Virus record (IMG/VR): IMGVR_UViG_2671180699_000003
DNA from: a virus
Taxonomy: Duplodnaviria > Heunggongvirae > Uroviricota > Caudoviricetes
Reading direction: 5' to 3' (one strand)
DNA length: 18,126 nucleotides
Of the stretch, positions 835 through 14,326 are shown in pieces. Below the pieces are notes generated by a model, which saw nothing but the letters and a program-made list of their open reading frames with translations, was not told the origin of the DNA and ran no database searches. How positions within the stretch are numbered: position 1 is the stretch's first letter; each line of letters begins with the position of its first letter. The translations under genes were made by a program, and so were the position numbers.

Positions 835-908
835 GCGGGCGTAGTTCAATGGTAGAACGAGAGCTTCCCAAGCTCTATACGAGGGTTCGATTCCCTTCGC
901 CCGCTCCA
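835..908 (+). tRNA. glyU: tRNA-Gly (anticodon CCC)
   Basis: 74-nt sequence GCGGGCG...CGCCCGCTCCA with a 7-bp acceptor stem, D-arm GTTCAATGGTAGAAC, anticodon loop TTCCCAA (CCC), T-arm GGGTTCGATTCCC and encoded 3' CCA. Confidence 0.95.
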
Positions 909-1363: not shown

Positions 1364-2416
1364 TTATTTCCCCACCAGCTCGTTTATCTCTTTCACTGTC
1401 TGGTTAAACCGCTCTGACTCAAGCTCAACACCTAAGGCCCGACGCCCCAGCGCCATTGCTGCTTTTATTGTGGAACCGGATCCCATAAAAAAATCAGCAA
1501 CCAGATCACCAGGTCGACTACTGGCATTGATTATTTGCCTGAGCATATCCGCCGGTTTCTCACACGGATGTTTACCCGGGTAGAACTGAACGGGTTTATG
1601 CATCCAGACATCGGTATAAGGCACGGAGACTGATACGGAGAAATAGCGCCGGAGAGATTTAAACTCATCCAGCAATTCAGAATATTTGCGATTCAGTGAA
1701 TCATAAGATGCCACCAGCTGGTGGTGTGGTTGTTCCAGTTGTTGTTCCTGAAACTTCTCTGCCGCTATACGGGAAAACAGTGCCTGTAACTTCCGATAGT
1801 CAGCCTCATTCGGCAACTGCCACTGACTGGCACCAAACCAGTGGGAAACCATATTTTTCTTACCTGTGGCTTCGGCAATTTGTTTTGCCGTTATACCCAG
1901 TTCGGCACGAGCATCCCTGAAATACGATATCAGCGGTGCCATTATGTGCTGTTTGAGTTCCCTTTCTTTTGCCGCATAGCCGTCACTTTTGCCGCGATAT
2001 GGCCCCTGGTAATGTTCAGCAAACAGAACGCGCTCTGTGGCAGGAAAATATGCGCGCAGACTTTCTTTATTACACCCATTCCAACGTCCGGACGGCTTCG
2101 CCCAGATGATATGGTTAAGCACGTTGAAACGTTCACGCATCATGATCTCAATATCAGATGCCAGGCGATGCCCACAGAACAGGTAAAGGCTTCCGGCAGG
2201 TTTTAACACCCGCCAGAACTGGGCCAGACAGTGGTCCAGCCACTTAAGGTAATCTTCGTCCCCTTTCCACTGATTGTCCCAGCCGTTGGGTTTCACCTTG
2301 AAGTACGGCGGATCGGTAACAATCAGGTCAATGGAATCATCAGGCAGGGACTGAATAAAATGCAGGCAATCAGCGTTGATTAAATCAGCACTGTTTATTT
2401 TTACAGTATTTTTCAT
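1364..2416 (-). CDS. DNA methyltransferase, beta-class amino-MTase (N6-adenine or N4-cytosine), 350 aa
   Basis: ATG start. N-terminal motif IV DLIVTDPPY and C-terminal motif I FFMGSGST (order IV...I is beta-class). No restriction endonuclease nearby, so it looks like an orphan phage MTase. Confidence 0.8.
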   Translation of the reverse strand: MKNTVKINSADLINADCLHFIQSLPDDSIDLIVTDPPYFKVKPNGWDNQWKGDEDYLKWLDHCLAQFWRVLKPAGSLYLFCGHRLASDIEIMMRERFNVLNHIIWAKPSGRWNGCNKESLRAYFPATERVLFAEHYQGPYRGKSDGYAAKERELKQHIMAPLISYFRDARAELGITAKQIAEATGKKNMVSHWFGASQWQLPNEADYRKLQALFSRIAAEKFQEQQLEQPHHQLVASYDSLNRKYSELLDEFKSLRRYFSVSVSVPYTDVWMHKPVQFYPGKHPCEKPADMLRQIINASSRPGDLVADFFMGSGSTIKAAMALGRRALGVELESERFNQTVKEINELVGK

Positions 2417-3046: not shown

Positions 3047-3664
3047 TCAATTATCTTCCAGGCCGGATGCTATCAACGAAAGCCTCTCAAAAAACGCTGT
3101 AGCAGCCTTGTCCAAAGTTGAATAAGTACTGTATTCTCCGTGTTCGGGACCAACCACTACCCATGGTCGTCTTTTTGGGATTCGGGACTTCTCAGAAATC
3201 ACTGTTCCAGATATACCAATATCAATTGTTACACCTGTTATTATTTTCTCTTCATCTCTTTCCCTGAACTCAATTGCCATAAATGCCGTTTTTTTTCGTT
3301 TCCCGTTTTTAAAAAAATCAAATAAAGCAAAGCGATGCTCATTAAAATCAACACCCCATCGTCCTTCAGGATAAAGGGCATGAAAGTTGTCATTTACGCT
3401 CTGCATCGTCTCATAAGCTTTAACTTCTAAATCTCCATAGTGCATAGATACCGCGCAGGAGTCACTGGGTAACTGTATTTTCCCAAGATTGAAAACCTTT
3501 ACTGCTCCAGAACTATGGCATCTTGCCCGCAATTTATCCCCATTTATACTAATCGGAGAAATATTCCTTAATGTTCCGGGCTGGCTCCCTCCTAAGTAAA
3601 CGACTGTTAAAGATTGCTTATTTTCAATTGCATCAACTAATACATGCTCTACATTTTTATCCAT
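3047..3664 (-). CDS. hypothetical cargo protein, 205 aa, with a possible N-terminal WYL-like beta-barrel
   Basis: Start set at the ATG at 3664 (MDKNVEHV...), which has a GGGAGG SD 7 nt upstream, rather than the ORF-track start at 3691. The segment LTVVYLGGSQPGTLRNISPISINGDKLRARCHSSGAVKVFNLGKIQL resembles the WYL pattern by eye. AT-rich compared with its neighbours. Confidence 0.55.
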   Translation of the reverse strand: MDKNVEHVLVDAIENKQSLTVVYLGGSQPGTLRNISPISINGDKLRARCHSSGAVKVFNLGKIQLPSDSCAVSMHYGDLEVKAYETMQSVNDNFHALYPEGRWGVDFNEHRFALFDFFKNGKRKKTAFMAIEFRERDEEKIITGVTIDIGISGTVISEKSRIPKRRPWVVVGPEHGEYSTYSTLDKAATAFFERLSLIASGLEDN

Positions 3665-6344: not shown

Positions 6345-6667
6345 ACTTTCAGGCCCCTCTCATGTAACCAGTGGGCTGCACGCAACCTGGCGTTCTCCTC
6401 ACCGGCAAGCAGTGCGCGGATGATACCGACCGCCTCGCTGTCGTCGTCCTTCACCGCGGTATGAAGCGTGATGCCCCGGGCCACGCCACGCTTTATCGTG
6501 ATGACGCCTTTTTTCTCCAGTGCGCGAAGATGCTCCACCGCTGCATTCACTGAACGGTATCCCAGCATGGTTGCCACCTCCTGATTGGTTGGCGGGAAGC
6601 CACGTTCTTTCTGATAAGAAATCAGCATATCCAGCACCTGCTGCTGGCATTGAGTTAACGTCGTCAT
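6341..6667 (-). CDS. LexA N-terminal DNA-binding domain protein (no S24 peptidase domain), 108 aa
   Basis: QQQVLDMLISYQKERGFPPTNQEVATMLGYRSVNAAVEHLRALEKKGVITI closely parallels the LexA winged-helix N-terminus. ATGA overlap with rusA. Confidence 0.65.
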   Translation of the reverse strand: MTTLTQCQQQVLDMLISYQKERGFPPTNQEVATMLGYRSVNAAVEHLRALEKKGVITIKRGVARGITLHTAVKDDDSEAVGIIRALLAGEENARLRAAHWLHERGLKV

Positions 6668-7317
6668 GCCGCCATCTCCCTGACCAGTTTTTCTGCCTGC
6701 TGGCGAACCTGCGCCAGAAAGGCCTCACCACATGCCTCAAGTTCATCGCGCCCGATGTAGCTGATTGCCGGTCCCTTCCAGGTCTTGTCGAAAACAGCAA
6801 TAGCACCAGCGAAGAAAGCGCCTGTCGGCACCTGCTTCTCATCCTTCGGGATAAACCAGGCAGGCAGTTCAAAACCAATACGCCCGCGAATAAAAGCAAT
6901 ATGATCTGCATCTTCCGGCCACCACACTTCGCTGGTGGCAGCTTTGATCAGGAAAACATAGCGCCCGCCTTTATCACGCATGGCACTGGCATGCTTCATG
7001 ATGTAACGCATGCCGGTGATGTATTGCCCCTCATGCTGACTGGCGCGGCTGTATGGGGGATTACCAAAGGCAGCACCTTTAAGCTCCGCAAGGCGTTCTG
7101 ACCAGTCATGCGCCAGCGCGTTGTCTTCCGCCGTGTAATACGCAGCACATTTGGCGTTATCACCGTCAGTGAACAGATCCAGAACAAACGGGCCAAACAG
7201 GGTGTTAATTCCCCAGAAAATGTTGTCCGGCGTGCGCCACTGATCGCCCACTTCCTTCAGTTCATGGGCTGGTTTGTTCCGCAGTTCCGCCAGCGCCTGG
7301 CAATATTTATTACTCAT
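6664..7317 (-). CDS. phage Dam-like N6-adenine DNA methyltransferase, 217 aa
   Basis: NPPY catalytic motif (FGNPPYS). Start set at ATG 7317 (MSNKYCQ...), which overlaps the upstream stop as TAATG, rather than the GTG at 7350. Confidence 0.7.
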   Translation of the reverse strand: MSNKYCQALAELRNKPAHELKEVGDQWRTPDNIFWGINTLFGPFVLDLFTDGDNAKCAAYYTAEDNALAHDWSERLAELKGAAFGNPPYSRASQHEGQYITGMRYIMKHASAMRDKGGRYVFLIKAATSEVWWPEDADHIAFIRGRIGFELPAWFIPKDEKQVPTGAFFAGAIAVFDKTWKGPAISYIGRDELEACGEAFLAQVRQQAEKLVREMAA

Positions 7318-7805
7318 TAAGCCCCCACGTAATTCCCTGAGAGATACCACTCTTCACCTGATGCAGCCCGCTTACTGCTTTTCCGTAAACACCGTTCACG
7401 ACGCGCCAGAAAATTGTTTCGTTCTGGCTGGGAGTGGCTTTCACGGAATGCCGCCATCCACACCGTTGCAGCACGACGGTATAAGCCCCTCGACTCCAGT
7501 TCTTCAGCCTGGCGGGTCAGGCACAAAATCACCCGGGGGTCGTTAGTGCCGACATAGAACTTGCGCACAGGTCTGGTTTCACGAACTGGTTGTGGTTCCG
7601 GCTCCTGCGCTCTCTCAGTCAGGCGCGAGAAATGTCTGCGTGTATCTCCTTCACAACGGTGAGCCACACGCCCACTCTGACGTAACTTGCTTGCTGACTG
7701 CAGAACGCGCTGCCGTGAGTAACCTGCAAAAGCATCCGCAATGTCTCCGGAAGTACAGCCCGGATGGGCTTCAATGAATTTCTGAACTTCATTCAAAATA
7801 CTCAT
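7317..7805 (-). CDS. PerC-family transcriptional regulator-like protein, 162 aa
   Basis: C-terminal LESRGLYRRAATVWMAAF resembles the PerC/Pch signature (GLWRRAA..W). ATG at 7805 has a GGGGTGA SD; the ORF-track start at 7811 is a GTG. Confidence 0.5.
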   Translation of the reverse strand: MSILNEVQKFIEAHPGCTSGDIADAFAGYSRQRVLQSASKLRQSGRVAHRCEGDTRRHFSRLTERAQEPEPQPVRETRPVRKFYVGTNDPRVILCLTRQAEELESRGLYRRAATVWMAAFRESHSQPERNNFLARRERCLRKSSKRAASGEEWYLSGNYVGA

Positions 7806-7807
7806 GC

Positions 7808-8800
7808 TCACCCCCTGAATCCTGCCGGGATCTGGCTGTAGTCCACGTTGTCGTAACTGGATTTGAAATATGGGTCTTCGCGTTTTTCTGTGTATGTGCT
7901 GACGGACGGCGATAAGCGCAGGGAAAGCTCATCCCATTTTTCCCGCAGCTTCGACGGGCTGAGCACGTTACGGCACCAGAACGGATCGCGGCTGACGCGG
8001 CTGTACATCTCGCAGATTTGTTTGTGAGTACGACCATCCTGCACACACATCAGGCGAATTTCGTTTGCCCAGGCTGTCCAGTTCGGTTCTTTGGGACGAA
8101 CCACCTCGCCGTCACATTCGGCGGCCTGCTCGTACAGGGCGATGATTTTTTTCCAGAGCCACTGTGCGCAGGTCAAATCATCCTGCGTTCCCCACTGGCG
8201 CTTTTTAGGGCTGAATACAACCGCATCAGGATGGCGAGTTAAAAACTCCTGTTCAGCCGTTTGCGTGTCCGGTTGCGAAGCGTCCGGACGAGAAGAGGTT
8301 TTATTCTCTGTAGTAATCTCTGTTGTATTCTCTGTAAGATCATTGGGCCATTTTGACCCGATGACAGCGTGTCGTTTTGAACCAATGGATCGTGTCATTT
8401 TGCGCCCATCCATCAGGTCACTTTGACCCGATGGAGAAGTGCATTTTGACCTGATGGATTCGTTCACTTTGACCTCTTCTAAAAGCTCACTTTCATAGTT
8501 GATCGTGTAGAAGTTGGTCATGTCACGCTTCGATTTATTGAGTTGCTCGCGACGCAAAACCCCAAGTGATTTCAGGCTTGCAAATGTGCGTTTCAGAGTG
8601 GACTCTGACCAGAACGGAAACTGCTCCAGCCACTGTTCTGTCGTGTTATAAACCCAGCGAATTCCGCCATGCTCAGTGCCTGAATTCGTTTCATTCAGCC
8701 AGTAATGAAGCTGCTGCAACACAATTGCCTCATTCAGACCAATACGGCATGCAAGATCACGATTTATCACAATGGGCTGGGATGTCATTAACAGGCTCAT
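7808..8800 (-). CDS. replication initiation protein (lambda O-like organizer with a conserved phage C-terminal domain), 330 aa
   Basis: N-terminal winged-helix replication-protein motif and a conserved phage C-terminal region (PFWCRNVLSPSKLREKWDELS). Iterons lie inside the coding sequence. GGAGGTG SD upstream. Confidence 0.7.
   Translation of the reverse strand: MSLLMTSQPIVINRDLACRIGLNEAIVLQQLHYWLNETNSGTEHGGIRWVYNTTEQWLEQFPFWSESTLKRTFASLKSLGVLRREQLNKSKRDMTNFYTINYESELLEEVKVNESIRSKCTSPSGQSDLMDGRKMTRSIGSKRHAVIGSKWPNDLTENTTEITTENKTSSRPDASQPDTQTAEQEFLTRHPDAVVFSPKKRQWGTQDDLTCAQWLWKKIIALYEQAAECDGEVVRPKEPNWTAWANEIRLMCVQDGRTHKQICEMYSRVSRDPFWCRNVLSPSKLREKWDELSLRLSPSVSTYTEKREDPYFKSSYDNVDYSQIPAGFRG
8349..8476. 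repeat. origin iterons: about five direct repeats CAYTTTGACCYGATGGA at 23-24 bp spacing
   Basis: Copies at 8349, 8373 (degenerate), 8419, 8442 and 8465 (partial), plus an inverted partial copy TCCATCAGGTCA at 8409-8420. They fall in the linker region of the O-like gene, as in lambda ori. Confidence 0.65.
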
Positions 8801-9021
8801 GCCGCACCTCCGAGATGCTTCATGTTTTTTCCGGAGCGAAAGGCTATAAGCGGCATACTGACGCGGTAATTACGGCCCAGCGGTTCACAAATCACCTTCT
8901 GACATTCACGGTCAACCAGGCTAACACGTAGAACATGCCCTGCAGGCGTGGTGTACCACTGACCGGGGCGAGGACAACGGAAAGTCTGATTGGTAAATCG
9001 TTTGAAAATATTCCGGATCAT
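8797..9021 (-). CDS. hypothetical protein, 74 aa
   Basis: AAGGGGG SD 5 nt upstream; ATGA overlaps with both neighbours. Confidence 0.4.
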   Translation of the reverse strand: MIRNIFKRFTNQTFRCPRPGQWYTTPAGHVLRVSLVDRECQKVICEPLGRNYRVSMPLIAFRSGKNMKHLGGAA

Positions 9022-10166
9022 TTGCGCCCCCTTACCTCTGAAGAGTTCAGCGACGAATGAATAAGACGGGCAAGAAATGCCGCATCGTTAATTCGGTCAT
9101 ACAGACTTACAGCCAGAGGTGATTCAGCTTTTTCCAGCATGGGATAAAGCTGCTGCAACCAGACCTGATGAATTGATGAAATGTAGGAATAGAGAACGCT
9201 GGCGTTATGTGCAACGTCGCTCGGTACAGCGGGCTTTGAAAGCTGTTTCTCCATCTGGTTAAAGGCATTGATGTATGCCTCTTTGAACTGGGCAGCACGT
9301 TTACCCGTGAAACCCATAGCAAGAAACGCAAAGCCGTCGCGGGTTATTTGATAGCAAGGTAGTTTGCGGCCTGTGCAATCGGTGTAATCACTCACCGAAA
9401 AATTGCGGGCAGTGAATGATGCGGAACATTCAAGCGTGCGGATCTTTTTCAGTACATCGTCATGACGTTTGGAGAAGAAGTTGGCAACAGCCAGGGATGA
9501 AGTAACAGCCTGACCATCAACGATGGCAATTTCAGGTTGAGTGAGGGTTGGGATCGTAGCCATGATGGCAGTCTCCGATAACAGTGAATTACCTTCACCA
9601 CCGGAAACGCCAATTTCGCTGGTGGTGAACTGAACGGGGTTGGCGTAACCGGCGTTATCGGAAACCGGCGCACCTTTCGGTGCCCCCGTCCAGCCCACCA
9701 TAATTTGGGTGTGCACAGACGCAGACGATAAAAAAGACGCTGGCGCGTCATATATCGCCGATAACATTTCCAGGACGCCAATCCCGACACCCGCTTTATA
9801 AGGTGCCTGAACAGTGTAACGTCCCGGAATGGCAGAATCAATGTGCTGGTGGTCCTTCACACTCAACAAAATCACGCCTGAATTTCCACAAAGGACTAAA
9901 GCACTCATGCGGGTAGTCTTTGCGAAGATAGATAACGCGCTGTGTTTCTGGCTCCCAACGAATAACATGGACATAAAGCCCTCTTCCGTCACGAAACCAG
10001 CGGTTAAGTTCCTGCACAACTCGCCCCCCACAGTCAGGTAAAGTTCTCTGTGGTTACTTACAGCCAGGTGATTTGGTAATCTGCATTCATGCCGTAACAA
10101 CAGGTGTTCAGCGACGCTGACCACCAGCTGTTGCGACAAACGGTTATTTGCCGTTAAACTGTTCAT
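9018..10166 (-). CDS. Rha-family phage regulatory protein with a ~200-aa N-terminal extension (382 aa; alternative internal start at 9563 gives 181 aa)
   Basis: Rha-like motifs QAVTSSLAVANFFSKRHDDVLKKIR and ITRDGFAFLAMGFTGKRAAQFKEAYINAF begin at residue ~202. The ATG at 9563 has a GGAGA SD, but the frame stays open upstream to an ATG at 10166 that overlaps the upstream stop (ATGA). Confidence 0.55.
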   Translation of the reverse strand: MNSLTANNRLSQQLVVSVAEHLLLRHECRLPNHLAVSNHRELYLTVGGELCRNLTAGFVTEEGFMSMLFVGSQKHSALSIFAKTTRMSALVLCGNSGVILLSVKDHQHIDSAIPGRYTVQAPYKAGVGIGVLEMLSAIYDAPASFLSSASVHTQIMVGWTGAPKGAPVSDNAGYANPVQFTTSEIGVSGGEGNSLLSETAIMATIPTLTQPEIAIVDGQAVTSSLAVANFFSKRHDDVLKKIRTLECSASFTARNFSVSDYTDCTGRKLPCYQITRDGFAFLAMGFTGKRAAQFKEAYINAFNQMEKQLSKPAVPSDVAHNASVLYSYISSIHQVWLQQLYPMLEKAESPLAVSLYDRINDAAFLARLIHSSLNSSEVRGRK

Positions 10167-10726
10167 GCGTTAGTTTCTCCACAGACACAAAACGCCACGA
10201 CGCCCGGAGCTGCACACTCGCGGGCGTCACTCTTTTCTGGAGCGCAAAAGATTTTGTAGACCAGTGCTGCATGCTCCTGGAGCTTCGAAATTGACAGATA
10301 CAACTCATCATTAATTGCTGTCTGCTCGTGTGGCTCCACTACCCCATCTTCGATTGCCGAACGAATCTGCTTTGAGTAACTCCCGATCTGTTCGATGACT
10401 TCCAGCAGGCGCTGGTTTATATCGGCGTTCTCTACTTCCTCAAGTTCAGGAAGCGATACAAACACCCCACCAGCAGACTGTGCGACAGCATCCGCAATGT
10501 AGTGAGTGCCAGCCGCGCGCTGTAAAATCATTGCCCATCCCAGCGGGAAAATCTGATCGCCATCTGCACGAAGGCGGTTGAATAAAGCGTTCTCTGTTAC
10601 ATCCAGCCACTCAGCAGCTTCAGCGTAACCTCCCGGCAACGCCGCGATAGTTTTTCTGACAGCTTTCACGTACCACTCAGGCTGTTTTTCTACTTTCCAG
10701 TGATGCTTACCCACGGTTAGCCTCAT
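10163..10726 (-). CDS. hypothetical regulator at the CII position (possibly YdaT-like), 187 aa
   Basis: First gene after cro. HTH-like segment GGYAEAAEWLDVTENALFNRLR followed by a predicted helical region. A GTG at 10714 with a GAGG SD is a possible alternative start. Confidence 0.35.
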   Translation of the reverse strand: MRLTVGKHHWKVEKQPEWYVKAVRKTIAALPGGYAEAAEWLDVTENALFNRLRADGDQIFPLGWAMILQRAAGTHYIADAVAQSAGGVFVSLPELEEVENADINQRLLEVIEQIGSYSKQIRSAIEDGVVEPHEQTAINDELYLSISKLQEHAALVYKIFCAPEKSDARECAAPGVVAFCVCGETNA

Positions 10727-12837: not shown

Positions 12838-13662
12838 ATGTCTCATAACTTAGACGCAACCGCAATTAATCAAATCCATGCCCTTATTTCTGCTCAGGGT
12901 GTTAATGAAATCATCAGTAAGATTGGTGCCGATGCTGTGGCATTGCCTGAGAATTTCCGCATTCATGATCTGGAAAAATTTAATTTAAATCGTTTCCGTT
13001 TCCGTGGTGCGCTTTCCACTGCCAGCATCGATGACTTTACCCGTTATTCTAAAGATCTTGCAGATGAAGGCACCCGCTGCTTTATCGATGCCGATAATAT
13101 GCGTGCCGTCAGTGTGCTTAACCTGGGTACTATTGATGAGCCAGGTCACGCAGATAACACTGCCACTCTCAAACTGAAAAAGACAGCACCGTTCTCTGCT
13201 CTGTTGTCTGTTAATGGCGAGCGTAACTCCCAGAAGTCACTGGCAGAATGGATTGAAGACTGGGCCGACTACCTTGTGGGCTTTGATGCTAATGGTGACA
13301 CCATTCAGGCAACCAAAGCGGCTGCGGCGATCCGTAAAATCACAATTGAAGCGAACCAGACCGCTGATTTTGAAGATAATGACTTCAGCGGCAAACGCTC
13401 CCTGATGGAGTCTGTCGAAGCGAAGACCAAAGACATTATGCCAGTGGCATTTGAATTTAAATGCGTTCCGTTTGAAGGCCTGAAAGAACGTCCATTTAAA
13501 TTACGCCTCAGCATTATCACTGGCGATCGTCCTGTACTGGTTCTGCGCATTATTCAGCTGGAAGCGGTGCAGGAAGAAATGGCTAACGAATTTCGTGATC
13601 TGCTTGTTGAGAAATTCAAAGACAGCAAAGTAGAAACCTTTATTGGTACTTTCACCGCCTGA
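12838..13662 (+). CDS. yfdQ: YfdQ-like protein (DUF2303), 274 aa
   Basis: 274 aa, the same length as K-12 YfdQ; gene order yfdP-yfdQ-yfdR; AGTGAGGA SD. Confidence 0.65.
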
Positions 13663-13696: not shown

Positions 13697-13789
13697 ATGG
13701 AAACGTAATTAACTCAATAATCACCGAATGGTGAGGGCTTCCTTTTACCAGAATTCAGCGCGGTGCAGTGCATATACGTGGAGAACAAA

Positions 13790-14326
13790 ATGTCATTTAT
13801 TAAAACTTTTTCCGGGAAGCATTTTTATTATGACAAGATAAATAAAGACGACATCGTTATTAACGATATCGCGGTTTCCCTTTCAAATATCTGTCGCTTT
13901 GCAGGACATCTTTCACACTTCTACAGCGTCGCCCAACATGCGGTGCTTTGCAGCCAGCTGGTACCGCAGGAATTTGCTTTTGAAGCGTTAATGCATGATG
14001 CAACAGAAGCATATTGTCAGGACATCCCCGCACCACTGAAACGCCTTCTTCCTGACTATAAACGGATGGAAGAAAAAATAGACGCCGTAATCCGTGAGAA
14101 ATACGGGTTACCTCCTGTTATGAGCACGCCAGTGAAATATGCCGATCTCATTATGCTGGCAACCGAACGCCGCGATCTCGGGCTTGATGATGGTTCTTTC
14201 TGGCCTGTACTGGAAGGTATCCCGGCGACAGAGATGTTCAAAGTTATTCCACTGTCACCAGGCCATGCCTACGGGATGTTTATGGAACGTTTTAACGAGT
14301 TATCGGGGTTACGCAAATGCGCATGA
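13790..14326 (+). CDS. yfdR: YfdR-like HD-domain phosphohydrolase, 178 aa
   Basis: ATG at 13790 with a GGAGA SD. His/Asp residues spaced as in an HD domain (AGHLSH...HDATEAY...D). 178 aa, the same length as K-12 YfdR. Confidence 0.65.
   Translation: MSFIKTFSGKHFYYDKINKDDIVINDIAVSLSNICRFAGHLSHFYSVAQHAVLCSQLVPQEFAFEALMHDATEAYCQDIPAPLKRLLPDYKRMEEKIDAVIREKYGLPPVMSTPVKYADLIMLATERRDLGLDDGSFWPVLEGIPATEMFKVIPLSPGHAYGMFMERFNELSGLRKCA

Follow-up and report, generated by a model that had tools for sequence, protein, structure and literature searches.

A probable lambda-like replication origin within the initiator gene of an Escherichia coli prophage: palindromic iterons, a 12-mer array and no P gene

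The cooperation of the phage lambda proteins O and P with DnaB is the textbook example of a virus taking over the helicase of its host, with the C-terminal domain (C-domain) of O binding P. The origin of lambda is located in the O gene itself, between its two domain-coding halves: dyad-symmetric iterons, spaced by 20-24 bp, occupy nucleotides (nt) 349-433 of the gene and are followed by an A+T-rich tract. The locus described here has a similar layout. It is part of an 18,126-nucleotide stretch of viral DNA (IMG/VR record IMGVR_UViG_2671180699_000003; the whole stretch is called the window), which belongs to a lambdoid Escherichia coli prophage of the CPS-53/SfV/mEp460 group. Positions 8302-8479, inside the linker-coding part of the prophage's own initiator gene, are very probably its vegetative replication origin.

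Origins of related design are found in other replicons. In RepA_N plasmids of Firmicutes (pSK41, pSK1 and pAD1 type), the iterons are placed centrally within the initiator gene of the plasmid itself, a winged-helix N-terminal domain (N-domain) binds them as a dimer, and the C-domain is variable and host-specific. The window resembles them in the central position of its iterons and in a predicted winged-helix N-domain, but these are plasmid and not phage replicons, the match is weak and generic at the level of fold, and no Pfam model, RepA_N included, matches in sequence. In plasmids RK2 (TrfA) and F (RepE), iterons stand beside repeated 13-mers in an A+T-rich unwinding element, and the Rep protein binds one strand of these repeats. 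An iteron array next to short tandem repeats in an A+T-rich element is also present here, and the plasmids provide a model for the possible role of its ACAGAGA units; their origins, on the contrary, are non-coding and use DnaA boxes, of which the window has none. Rep binding at the unwinding elements of iteron plasmids is among the topics of a review (PMC10797057). By analogy, the initiator of the prophage might bind its 12-mers in single-stranded form. Among phages, oriL of Bacillus phage SPP1 in gene 38 (replisome organiser G38P) and ORF20 of Staphylococcus phage 80alpha combine an origin in the initiator gene with an N-domain that binds it and a C-domain that hands over to the loader and helicase (PMC5499656). 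The likeness, as far as that description goes, consists of an origin embedded in a modular initiator gene; SPP1 and 80alpha, however, encode their own loader and helicase.

A loader gene is also missing in the O-only phages. An O homologue alone is reported for LLS and for 34 of 314 enterobacterial lambdoid phages, and their replication "is not yet understood" (PMC12315714, Genome Res 2025). About a tenth of the enterobacterial lambdoid phages are O-only, among them the Shigella phages that convert the serotype and prophages that are very common in E. coli. LLS, SfII, SfIV and SfV share with the window a single O-family gene, the lack of a helicase or loader gene and a C-terminal tail of the form [IV]PxGFRG; SfII and SfIV also have its C-domain in common. 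They differ in their N-domains and iterons, the latter repeating every 15 bp in SfII, SfIV and LLS and being of another type in SfV, and have no CAGAKA array. The O-only state is already in the literature, but neither the anatomy of the origin nor the tail is described in the same study (PMC12315714).

As judged from its sequence, the origin of the prophage is of the lambda kind, in a variant form that combines an unnamed but very widespread origin-binding domain with six palindromic 23-bp iterons, a conserved, ordered 12-mer element and no P. It resembles lambda in the arrangement of iterons and A+T-rich tract, in the homologous C-domain of its initiator and in the operon position of the gene. 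Unlike in lambda, the N-domain is of an unrelated sequence, the iterons have another sequence and number six instead of four, an ordered tandem array replaces the A-runs, and the initiator ends in [IV]PxGFRG instead of ...NTDWIYGVDL. That this is an iteron origin as in lambda had been proposed in a first-pass annotation of the window; the layout, the selection acting on the DNA and the exchange of iterons together with the N-domain, presented below, all support it.

Iterons and 12-mer array

The initiator gene carries six abutting 23-bp imperfect palindromes, I1 to I6 (Table 1), in codons 107-151 (gene nt 322-460). This is the linker-coding part between the two domains, where the first-pass annotation had also located them. 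Of the about five direct repeats that it reported at 23-24-bp spacing, place and spacing are correct (from I1 to I6, the centres are 24, 23, 23, 23 and 23 bp apart), but there are six. The consensus that it gave reflects a significant pattern, read out of register and on the antisense strand because the gene lies on the minus strand (7808-8800). On the gene strand, the consensus is CATCrGGTCA-AAA-TGACCyGATG with the palindrome centre GGTCA-AAR-TGACC; across the family of relatives, it is CATCAGGTCAAAATGACCCGATC. A near-palindrome at 8409-8435, interpreted earlier as a separate inverted copy, does exist but represents the dyad symmetry of I4 itself, which scores 5/6 in each arm. The symmetry of the iterons also explains a perfect 13-nt inverted repeat (8408-8420 and 8447-8459).

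The repeats are far beyond chance. A scan of the 18-kb window with CAYTTTGACCYGATGGA, allowing up to three mismatches, returned five matches, all within 8349-8458 (four direct and one inverted, at 8409-8425), against 0.16 expected; none of 200 shuffled sequences attained five. The 23-24-bp period was recovered both by repeat finding and by Tandem Repeats Finder, and the autocorrelation at a shift of 23 reaches 0.54, compared to a null maximum of 0.34 +/- 0.02. No Rfam family matched at the repeats.

Directly downstream of the iterons in the gene sense, three tandem 12-bp units form an array at gene nt 464-499, which had been missed in the first-pass annotation. The G+C content of this array is 0.31, against 0.48 for the window as a whole, the lowest value of any 40-bp segment in the region 7700-8900. 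Its sense strand is 67% purine and is unpaired in a single-strand fold prediction. No DnaA box (TTWTNCACA) was found in the whole window, where 2.1 matches are expected. In one relative (L092, IMG/VR 2563366940_000001), the array is broken after its first unit by a foreign TGTGAACCGCCCCGGGAATCCTGGAGACTAAACTTCC... at about gene nt 475. The insert resembles the end of an insertion sequence of the IS3 family. It shortens the initiator to 169 amino acids (aa), and the origin of this prophage remnant is dead.

The variation among 66 distinct colinear relatives, drawn from 80 IMG/VR loci, phage HannyBb and a Klebsiella phage, indicates that the repeats are under selection as DNA. Third-codon sites with a minor allele above 10% amount to 74% in the N-domain, 31% in the iteron cores and 0% in the 12-mer array (0 of 12 positions), and the mean minor-allele fraction at these sites falls from 0.262 to 0.098 and 0.018, respectively. 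The synonymous-site variability over the repeats is 2.5- to 14-fold below that of the N-domain. The codon frames of I1 to I6 are 2, 2, 0, 1, 2 and 0: as a 23-bp period distributes six units over three frames, the peptides read from them differ (SIRSK, SGQSD, DGRKM, SIGSK, etc.). The invariant positions of the iterons are, in addition, dyad-symmetric, with A at -10 facing T at +10 and CA at -3/-2 facing TG at +2/+3.

Two further observations concern the iteron sequence. GATC occurs at 8338 and 8388, at iteron edges, and the family consensus iteron ends in GATC; two such sites in 190 bp, where ~0.7 are expected, are not a significant excess, and a control of the origin by methylation through these sites and the phage Dam enzyme is only a thought. 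The core of I4, GGTCA-AAG-TGACC (8416-8428), matches the vertebrate oestrogen response element GGTCAnnnTGACC in its half-sites and in their 3-bp spacing, a coincidence without biological meaning here. This resemblance accounts for the match of "GGTCAAAATGAC" to an oestrogen-receptor paper: full-text literature searches with the iteron and 12-mer sequences returned only unrelated papers on oestrogen receptors and on DDIAS/cancer.

Table 1. Features of the putative origin, its initiator and the surrounding early right operon; genes are listed in the order of transcription, and iteron and 12-mer sequences are those of the gene strand.
Feature	Position	Strand	Remarks
Six abutting 23-bp imperfect palindromic iterons	8341-8479		within initiator gene; repeat and symmetry analysis
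I1	8341-8363		centre 8352; catcgGGTCA-AAA-TGGCCcaatg
I2	8365-8387		centre 8376; cattgGTTCA-AAA-CGACAcgctg
I3	8388-8410		centre 8399; gatggGCGCA-AAA-TGACAcgatc; degenerate
I4	8411-8433		centre 8422; catcgGGTCA-AAG-TGACCtgatg
I5	8434-8456		centre 8445; catcaGGTCA-AAA-TGCACttctc
I6	8457-8479		centre 8468; gaagaGGTCA-AAG-TGAACgaatc; degenerate
Three tandem 12-bp units ACAGAGAWTACW	8302-8337		directly downstream of iterons, gene sense; candidate DNA-unwinding and helicase-entry element; units ACAGAGAATACA / ACAGAGATTACT / ACAGAGAATAAA
N-terminal winged-helix origin-binding domain (predicted), aa 1 to ~108	8476-8800	-	AlphaFold2 model
C-terminal helical domain, aa 184-296	7913-8251	-	homologous to lambda O C-domain
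C-terminal tail, aa 297-330	7811-7912	-	predicted disordered; predicted local distance difference test score (pLDDT) below 55
IPAGFRG, last residues of tail	7811-7831	-	candidate docking peptide for host helicase-loading machinery
cro-like gene		-	first in early right operon
cII	10163-10726	-	early right operon
Ash/Rha antirepressor open reading frame (ORF), 382 aa	9018-10166	-	between cII and DUF4222 gene
DUF4222 gene	8797-9021	-	directly before initiator
O-family replication initiator gene, 330 aa, origin inside	7808-8800	-	PHROG 391 "replication initiation O-like", E-value 1e-101
PerC-like gene, yfdN-like	7317-7811	-	Pfam PerC, E-value 7e-9; PHROG 1324 "transcriptional activator"
Dam methylase gene	6664-7350	-	two genes downstream of initiator

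N-domain family and its iterons

The N-domain ends at about residue 104-108. Its AlphaFold2 model, built on 76 sequences, has a pLDDT of 85.7 and a winged-helix topology, and the best Foldseek matches are winged helix-turn-helix regulators. Matches to the RepA_N plasmid initiators 4pql, 5kbj and 4pt7 are weak (E-value ~1e-2, template modelling score ~0.5) and generic, and the RepA_N family (PF06970) was not matched in the Pfam search of the initiator. None of the Pfam, NCBIfam and PDB sequences matched the initiator, in the case of Pfam not even at an E-value threshold of 10. The N-domain is not of the lambda O type: PF04492 (Phage_rep_O) was unmatched, and BLASTP gave no N-terminal alignment to lambda O. 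A profile search against 1.84 billion cluster representatives (50% identity), on the other hand, retrieved 16,143 of them at E-values up to 1e-3 and 3,424 at up to 1e-30. Invariant motifs of the homologous N-domains are LA..IGLNEA..LQQ..YWL ... R.T..Y.I. Many of the top-scoring representatives (P0360-P0394 and others) are 400-880 aa long and match the profile in two stretches, in one case three; these may be tandem-domain initiators or fusions.

Close relatives are abundant. The initiator gene is present, at a coverage of at least 80%, in 1,715 of 5,426 complete E. coli genomes. The isolated phage mEp460_4F5 carries it with 98.5% identity over the full length of 7808-8800, and its iterons are identical to those of the window. 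The HannyBb gene, at only 78% DNA identity, still has six iterons, alike in type and 23 bp apart, and its three 12-mers are unchanged. The repeats are hence retained in related isolated phages, the point by which the first-pass annotation had proposed to check them. SfII and SfIV illustrate the reverse situation: the C-terminal half of their initiator is 97% identical to that of the window, whereas the N-domain is different, and so are the iterons (GATTTTGACGGGTCA, 15-bp period). The iterons of LLS are of the SfII type, and SfV has a third type. This exchange suggests that N-domain and iterons form one specificity unit, which is the classic lambdoid pattern.

The IMG/VR scan gave only close relatives (79-100% identity), and wider diversity was drawn from the phage records of GenBank, among which tblastn with the N-domain identified 111-123 entries. 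In ten proteins of phages that infect Gram-negative or Gram-positive bacteria (Klebsiella, Providencia, Hafnia, Erwinia, Pantoea, Pseudomonas, Staphylococcus and Bacillus), the N-domain is 46-81% identical. In tblastn, the identity is ~50% for Listeria, 44% for Lactobacillus and 27-37% for Stenotrophomonas, Burkholderia, Vibrio, Flavobacterium and Bacteroides.

All of 18 diverse genes have palindromes of the form NNNCA-N3-TGNNN just past the part that encodes the N-domain, mostly with a 22-24-bp period. The arms are GGTCA/TGACC in Escherichia and Providencia (Providencia core AGGTCA-AAA-TGACCT), GGACA/TGTCC in Hafnia (GGGACA-AAT-TGTCCA) and GGGCA/TGCCC in Erwinia and Pantoea (Erwinia core AGGGCA-ATT-TGCCCT). 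More distant cores are GTATCA-AAA-TGATAC in Staphylococcus phage Sebago, AGCTCA-AAA-TGAGCC in Listeria and CTACCCA-TTG-TGGGTAG in Stenotrophomonas. Both arms thus vary symmetrically between phage lineages, as a dimeric reader predicts.

The 12-mers follow the same distribution. In nearly all of the 18 genes, the iterons are followed by 2-4 units related to ACAGAGAWTAC, for example TACAGAGATTAC TACAGAGACTAC in Pseudomonas phage AF, CCAGAGACTAC ACAGAGAATAC CAGAGACTAC in Bacillus phage TP21-L, CCAGATATAAAC ACAGATATAAAT in a Flavobacterium phage and four CAGAT at 12 nt in BcepMigl. As the CAGAKA pattern at a spacing of exactly 12 nt missed distant members, a spacing of 10-15 nt was used. Under this test, sense-strand CAGA[GT] pairs occur in the zone behind the iterons in 13 of the 18 genes, at a density of 7.4 per kb compared to 0.016 per kb elsewhere in the same loci (~460-fold). 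The residues encoded by the units vary (T-E, P-D, T-D, P-E) while the CAGA core is kept in distant relatives, and no CAGAKA 12-mers were found in the origins of lambda, SfII/LLS and SfV, which have other N-domain types. The units therefore appear to travel with the N-domain and not with the host or the C-domain.

The combination of a PHROG 391/6493-type N-domain, 23-bp iterons and tandem CAGAKA units recurs in phages of Klebsiella, Providencia, Erwinia, Pantoea, Pseudomonas, Burkholderia and Vibrio, as well as of Staphylococcus, Bacillus, Lactobacillus, Flavobacterium and Bacteroides. The comparison points to an unnamed, ancient cassette, widespread among phages whose hosts are Proteobacteria, Firmicutes or Bacteroidota. 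No description of such an origin was found in the literature searched. The origin-binding module is a member of a very large family without a name in the domain databases, in phages of Gram-negative, Gram-positive and Bacteroidota hosts; hence, a single experimental dissection would annotate the origins of thousands of phage genomes. The cassette could also supply portable pairs of origin and initiator for vector design.

The partners of the N-domain vary within the family. C-domains found elsewhere are DnaB_2 (Staphylococcus phage 96), Phg_2220_C (Listeria) and DnaT (Stenotrophomonas). The neighbouring genes differ as well: Pseudomonas phage AF and the Flavobacterium phage have a primase-helicase there, BcepMigl and mv4 a DnaC-like loader, and Staphylococcus phages both a loader and a DnaB-like helicase.

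Helicase loading and the C-terminal tail

The C-domain, which begins at about residue 184, is related to that of lambda O (BLASTP: 33% identity over 148 aa, E-value 1e-26), and a profile search with it retrieves fragments of lambda-type "Replication protein O". AlphaFold2 predicts a helical bundle with a pLDDT above 90. Domain and PHROG searches detected no P, DnaC-like or DnaB-like gene in the window, be it in the early right or the left operon, and the annotation of the complete HannyBb genome lists none either. The earlier statement that no phage helicase-loader gene follows the initiator is thus confirmed, in agreement with the O-only class (PMC12315714). The PerC-like gene, which encodes a putative regulator and occupies the place that P has in lambda, and the DUF4222 gene were considered as a hidden analogue of P and rejected: HannyBb, with the same initiator and origin, has neither of them.

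Since the C-domain is homologous to the one that binds P in lambda, the distinguishing feature is more likely to be the C-terminal tail. Initiators of phages without P end in [IV]PxGFR[GS], and they do so on three different C-domain types. The last residues are ...DYSQIPAGFRG in the window protein, SfII and SfV, ...EIPPGFRG in HannyBb, ...KIPEGFRG in LLS, ...SVPAGFRS in Klebsiella phi7.2 and ...SVPHGFRG in Pantoea AH07, and the motif is present in ~75 of the 77 intact initiators of the IMG/VR set. The other class of tails in the family of the lambda O C-domain is ...NTDWIYGVDL, ...DWNTAxGWExVL and similar. A Pfam Phage_lambda_P gene comes next after initiators with a lambda-type tail, in lambda and in all three further cases checked, but after neither of two further initiators with a GFRG tail. 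In the few cases checked, the two tails are mutually exclusive, and GFRG stands where P is absent.

The GFRG tail is not a strict marker for the absence of any loader. This idea is ruled out by three IMG/VR loci (L062, L064 and L067) in which a DnaC-like gene, 38% identical to BcepMigl gp62 (E-value 3e-37), comes directly after a GFRG-tail initiator gene, at locus nt 3466. Their initiators are HannyBb-like, with the same iteron type and the tail EIPPGFRG; this origin and initiator thus occur both in the presence and in the absence of a phage loader. Taken together, these patterns suggest that the tail chooses the partner, and that the GFRG tail would work with a DnaC-type loader, the host's own if the phage has none. 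Recruitment of the host DnaC/DnaB through the C-terminal domain, as proposed in the first-pass annotation, is a hypothesis. For the question of O-only replication, the locus offers three handles: a set of iterons, a candidate unwinding element and a seven-residue tail that tracks the absence of P.

Another type of tail occurs in Firmicute phages. ORF292 of Lactobacillus phage mv4 (L097) ends in ...NDDDLPF and gp4 of Bacillus phage TP21-L (L014) in ...EDIVLPF. The acidic C-terminal tip of the bacterial single-stranded DNA-binding protein SSB is ...DDDIPF, and the similarity suggests that these tails imitate that of SSB in order to attract proteins of the replisome. The possibility that such an acidic tail marks the loader-less initiators of Firmicute phages is weakened by mv4, which has an adjacent DnaC-like gene.

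Origin function and gene context

We infer origin function, iteron binding, unwinding at the 12-mers and the route of helicase recruitment from sequence. In the proposed mechanism, dimers of the winged-helix N-domain would bind each of the six palindromic iterons (core GGTCA-AAA-TGACC), and their 23-bp phasing would result in a wrapped nucleoprotein complex like the O-some of lambda. The strain would open the adjoining A+T-rich array, and the DnaB helicase of the host would be loaded there without a phage P, probably by the lambda-O-type C-domain and the disordered [IV]PxGFRG tail engaging the host DnaB-DnaC system. A wider proposal can be made, namely an ancient, pan-bacterial phage origin cassette in which the 12-mers are more than DNA that melts easily and act sequence-specifically, as a single-strand site of the initiator or an entry site of the helicase, and in which [IV]PxGFRG is a new docking motif that captures DnaB-DnaC in place of the O tail and P. 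As a joint claim, this is put forward tentatively, with more doubt than confidence.

Several points weigh against the interpretation as an origin of this kind. I3 and I6 are degenerate, and under the strict pattern the CAGAKA tandem is weak or absent in five of the 18 relatives. The 12-bp period is a multiple of 3, so a selected T-E-x-T peptide could add to the conservation of the array. No neighbour of the C-domain model was found by Foldseek at an E-value below 1; hence, no solved structural relative is available to guide the mechanism. The correlation between tail and P comes from few, phylogenetically clustered cases, and the apparently solo initiator of Providencia PSTCR8lys lacks the tail motif. 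Replication has been studied in none of the O-only phages, and one of them, LLS, requires RecBCD for good growth and has many Chi sites (PMC12315714). Because of this dependence, recombination-dependent replication may carry part of the load in the O-only class.

The repeats could alternatively be sites of the initiator, or of a regulator, for autoregulation, copy-number control or the exclusion of related phages, and not a start site. Plasmid iterons (RK2, F and P1) are generally known to mediate autorepression and handcuffing as well, an inhibition of homologous phages by cloned lambda iterons appears in one source (PMC3349717), and binding is indistinguishable from initiation by sequence analysis alone. 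However, the iterons are always coupled to an adjoining A+T-rich array of low stability, oriented as at lambda ori, and a promoter scan of 7700-9100 revealed no promoter-like site to regulate. This alternative is unlikely, and since the two roles are compatible, it would mostly be an added function and not a true alternative to an origin.

Somewhat less probable still is a relic: the prophage, or the whole O-only class, would replicate by a recombination-dependent or host-driven route, and no loader would be needed. The growth defect and the Chi sites of LLS agree with this, as do the disrupted 12-mer array of L092 and the fact that CPS-53, the relative in K-12, is called a defective prophage in titles of the literature. 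On the other side, purifying selection on iterons and 12-mers is strong and ongoing across the 66 distinct variants, isolated phages (mEp460_4F5 and HannyBb) carry an intact and nearly identical initiator, and the persistence of the tail motif on several types of C-domain speaks for a protein partner that is active.

Finally, it is very improbable that the repeats are a mere by-product, with no DNA function, of a low-complexity linker peptide selected as protein: the linker does look repetitive (SIRSK / SIGSK / VIGSK; TENT-TEIT-TENK) and the 12-bp units are in frame, but 23 bp is not a multiple of 3, the six copies yield different peptides, synonymous sites vary much less than in the N-domain, palindromy and symmetric co-variation of the arms are meaningless for a peptide, and the CAGA core outlasts changes of the encoded residues.

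As in lambda, the initiator gene comes after cro and cII within the early right operon. Downstream of the Dam methylase gene, the minus strand continues with a LexA-like gene, RusA, KilA-N, HNH/DUF968 and then Q, while the plus strand carries cI and the left operon. Two RNA genes are predicted by Rfam within the antirepressor ORF: the C4 antisense RNA (9618-9705, minus strand, 82.8 bits) and the Hfq-binding RNA isrK (9730-9806, minus strand, 61.5 bits). The C4/isrK/antirepressor region, located between cII and the initiator, looks like an immunity module of the P1/P7 c4-icd-ant type, and the start of the 382-aa ORF has probably been set too far upstream.

On the plus strand, homologues of yfdQ (PHROG 210, 12838-13662) and yfdR (deoxyribonucleoside 5'-monophosphate phosphatase, 13763-14326) are present; the O-only phage LLS also has both genes. 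In K-12, YfdR is reported to bind DnaA, and overexpression of yfdQ-R-S-T to inhibit initiation at oriC (PMC4776307). A shut-off of host initiation might be linked to loader-less phage replication. Near the left end of the window, a tRNA gene (835-905, plus strand, Rfam 71.6 bits) is flanked by a peptidase/endolysin-like ORF (1-756) and a DNA methyltransferase gene (1364-2416, minus strand).

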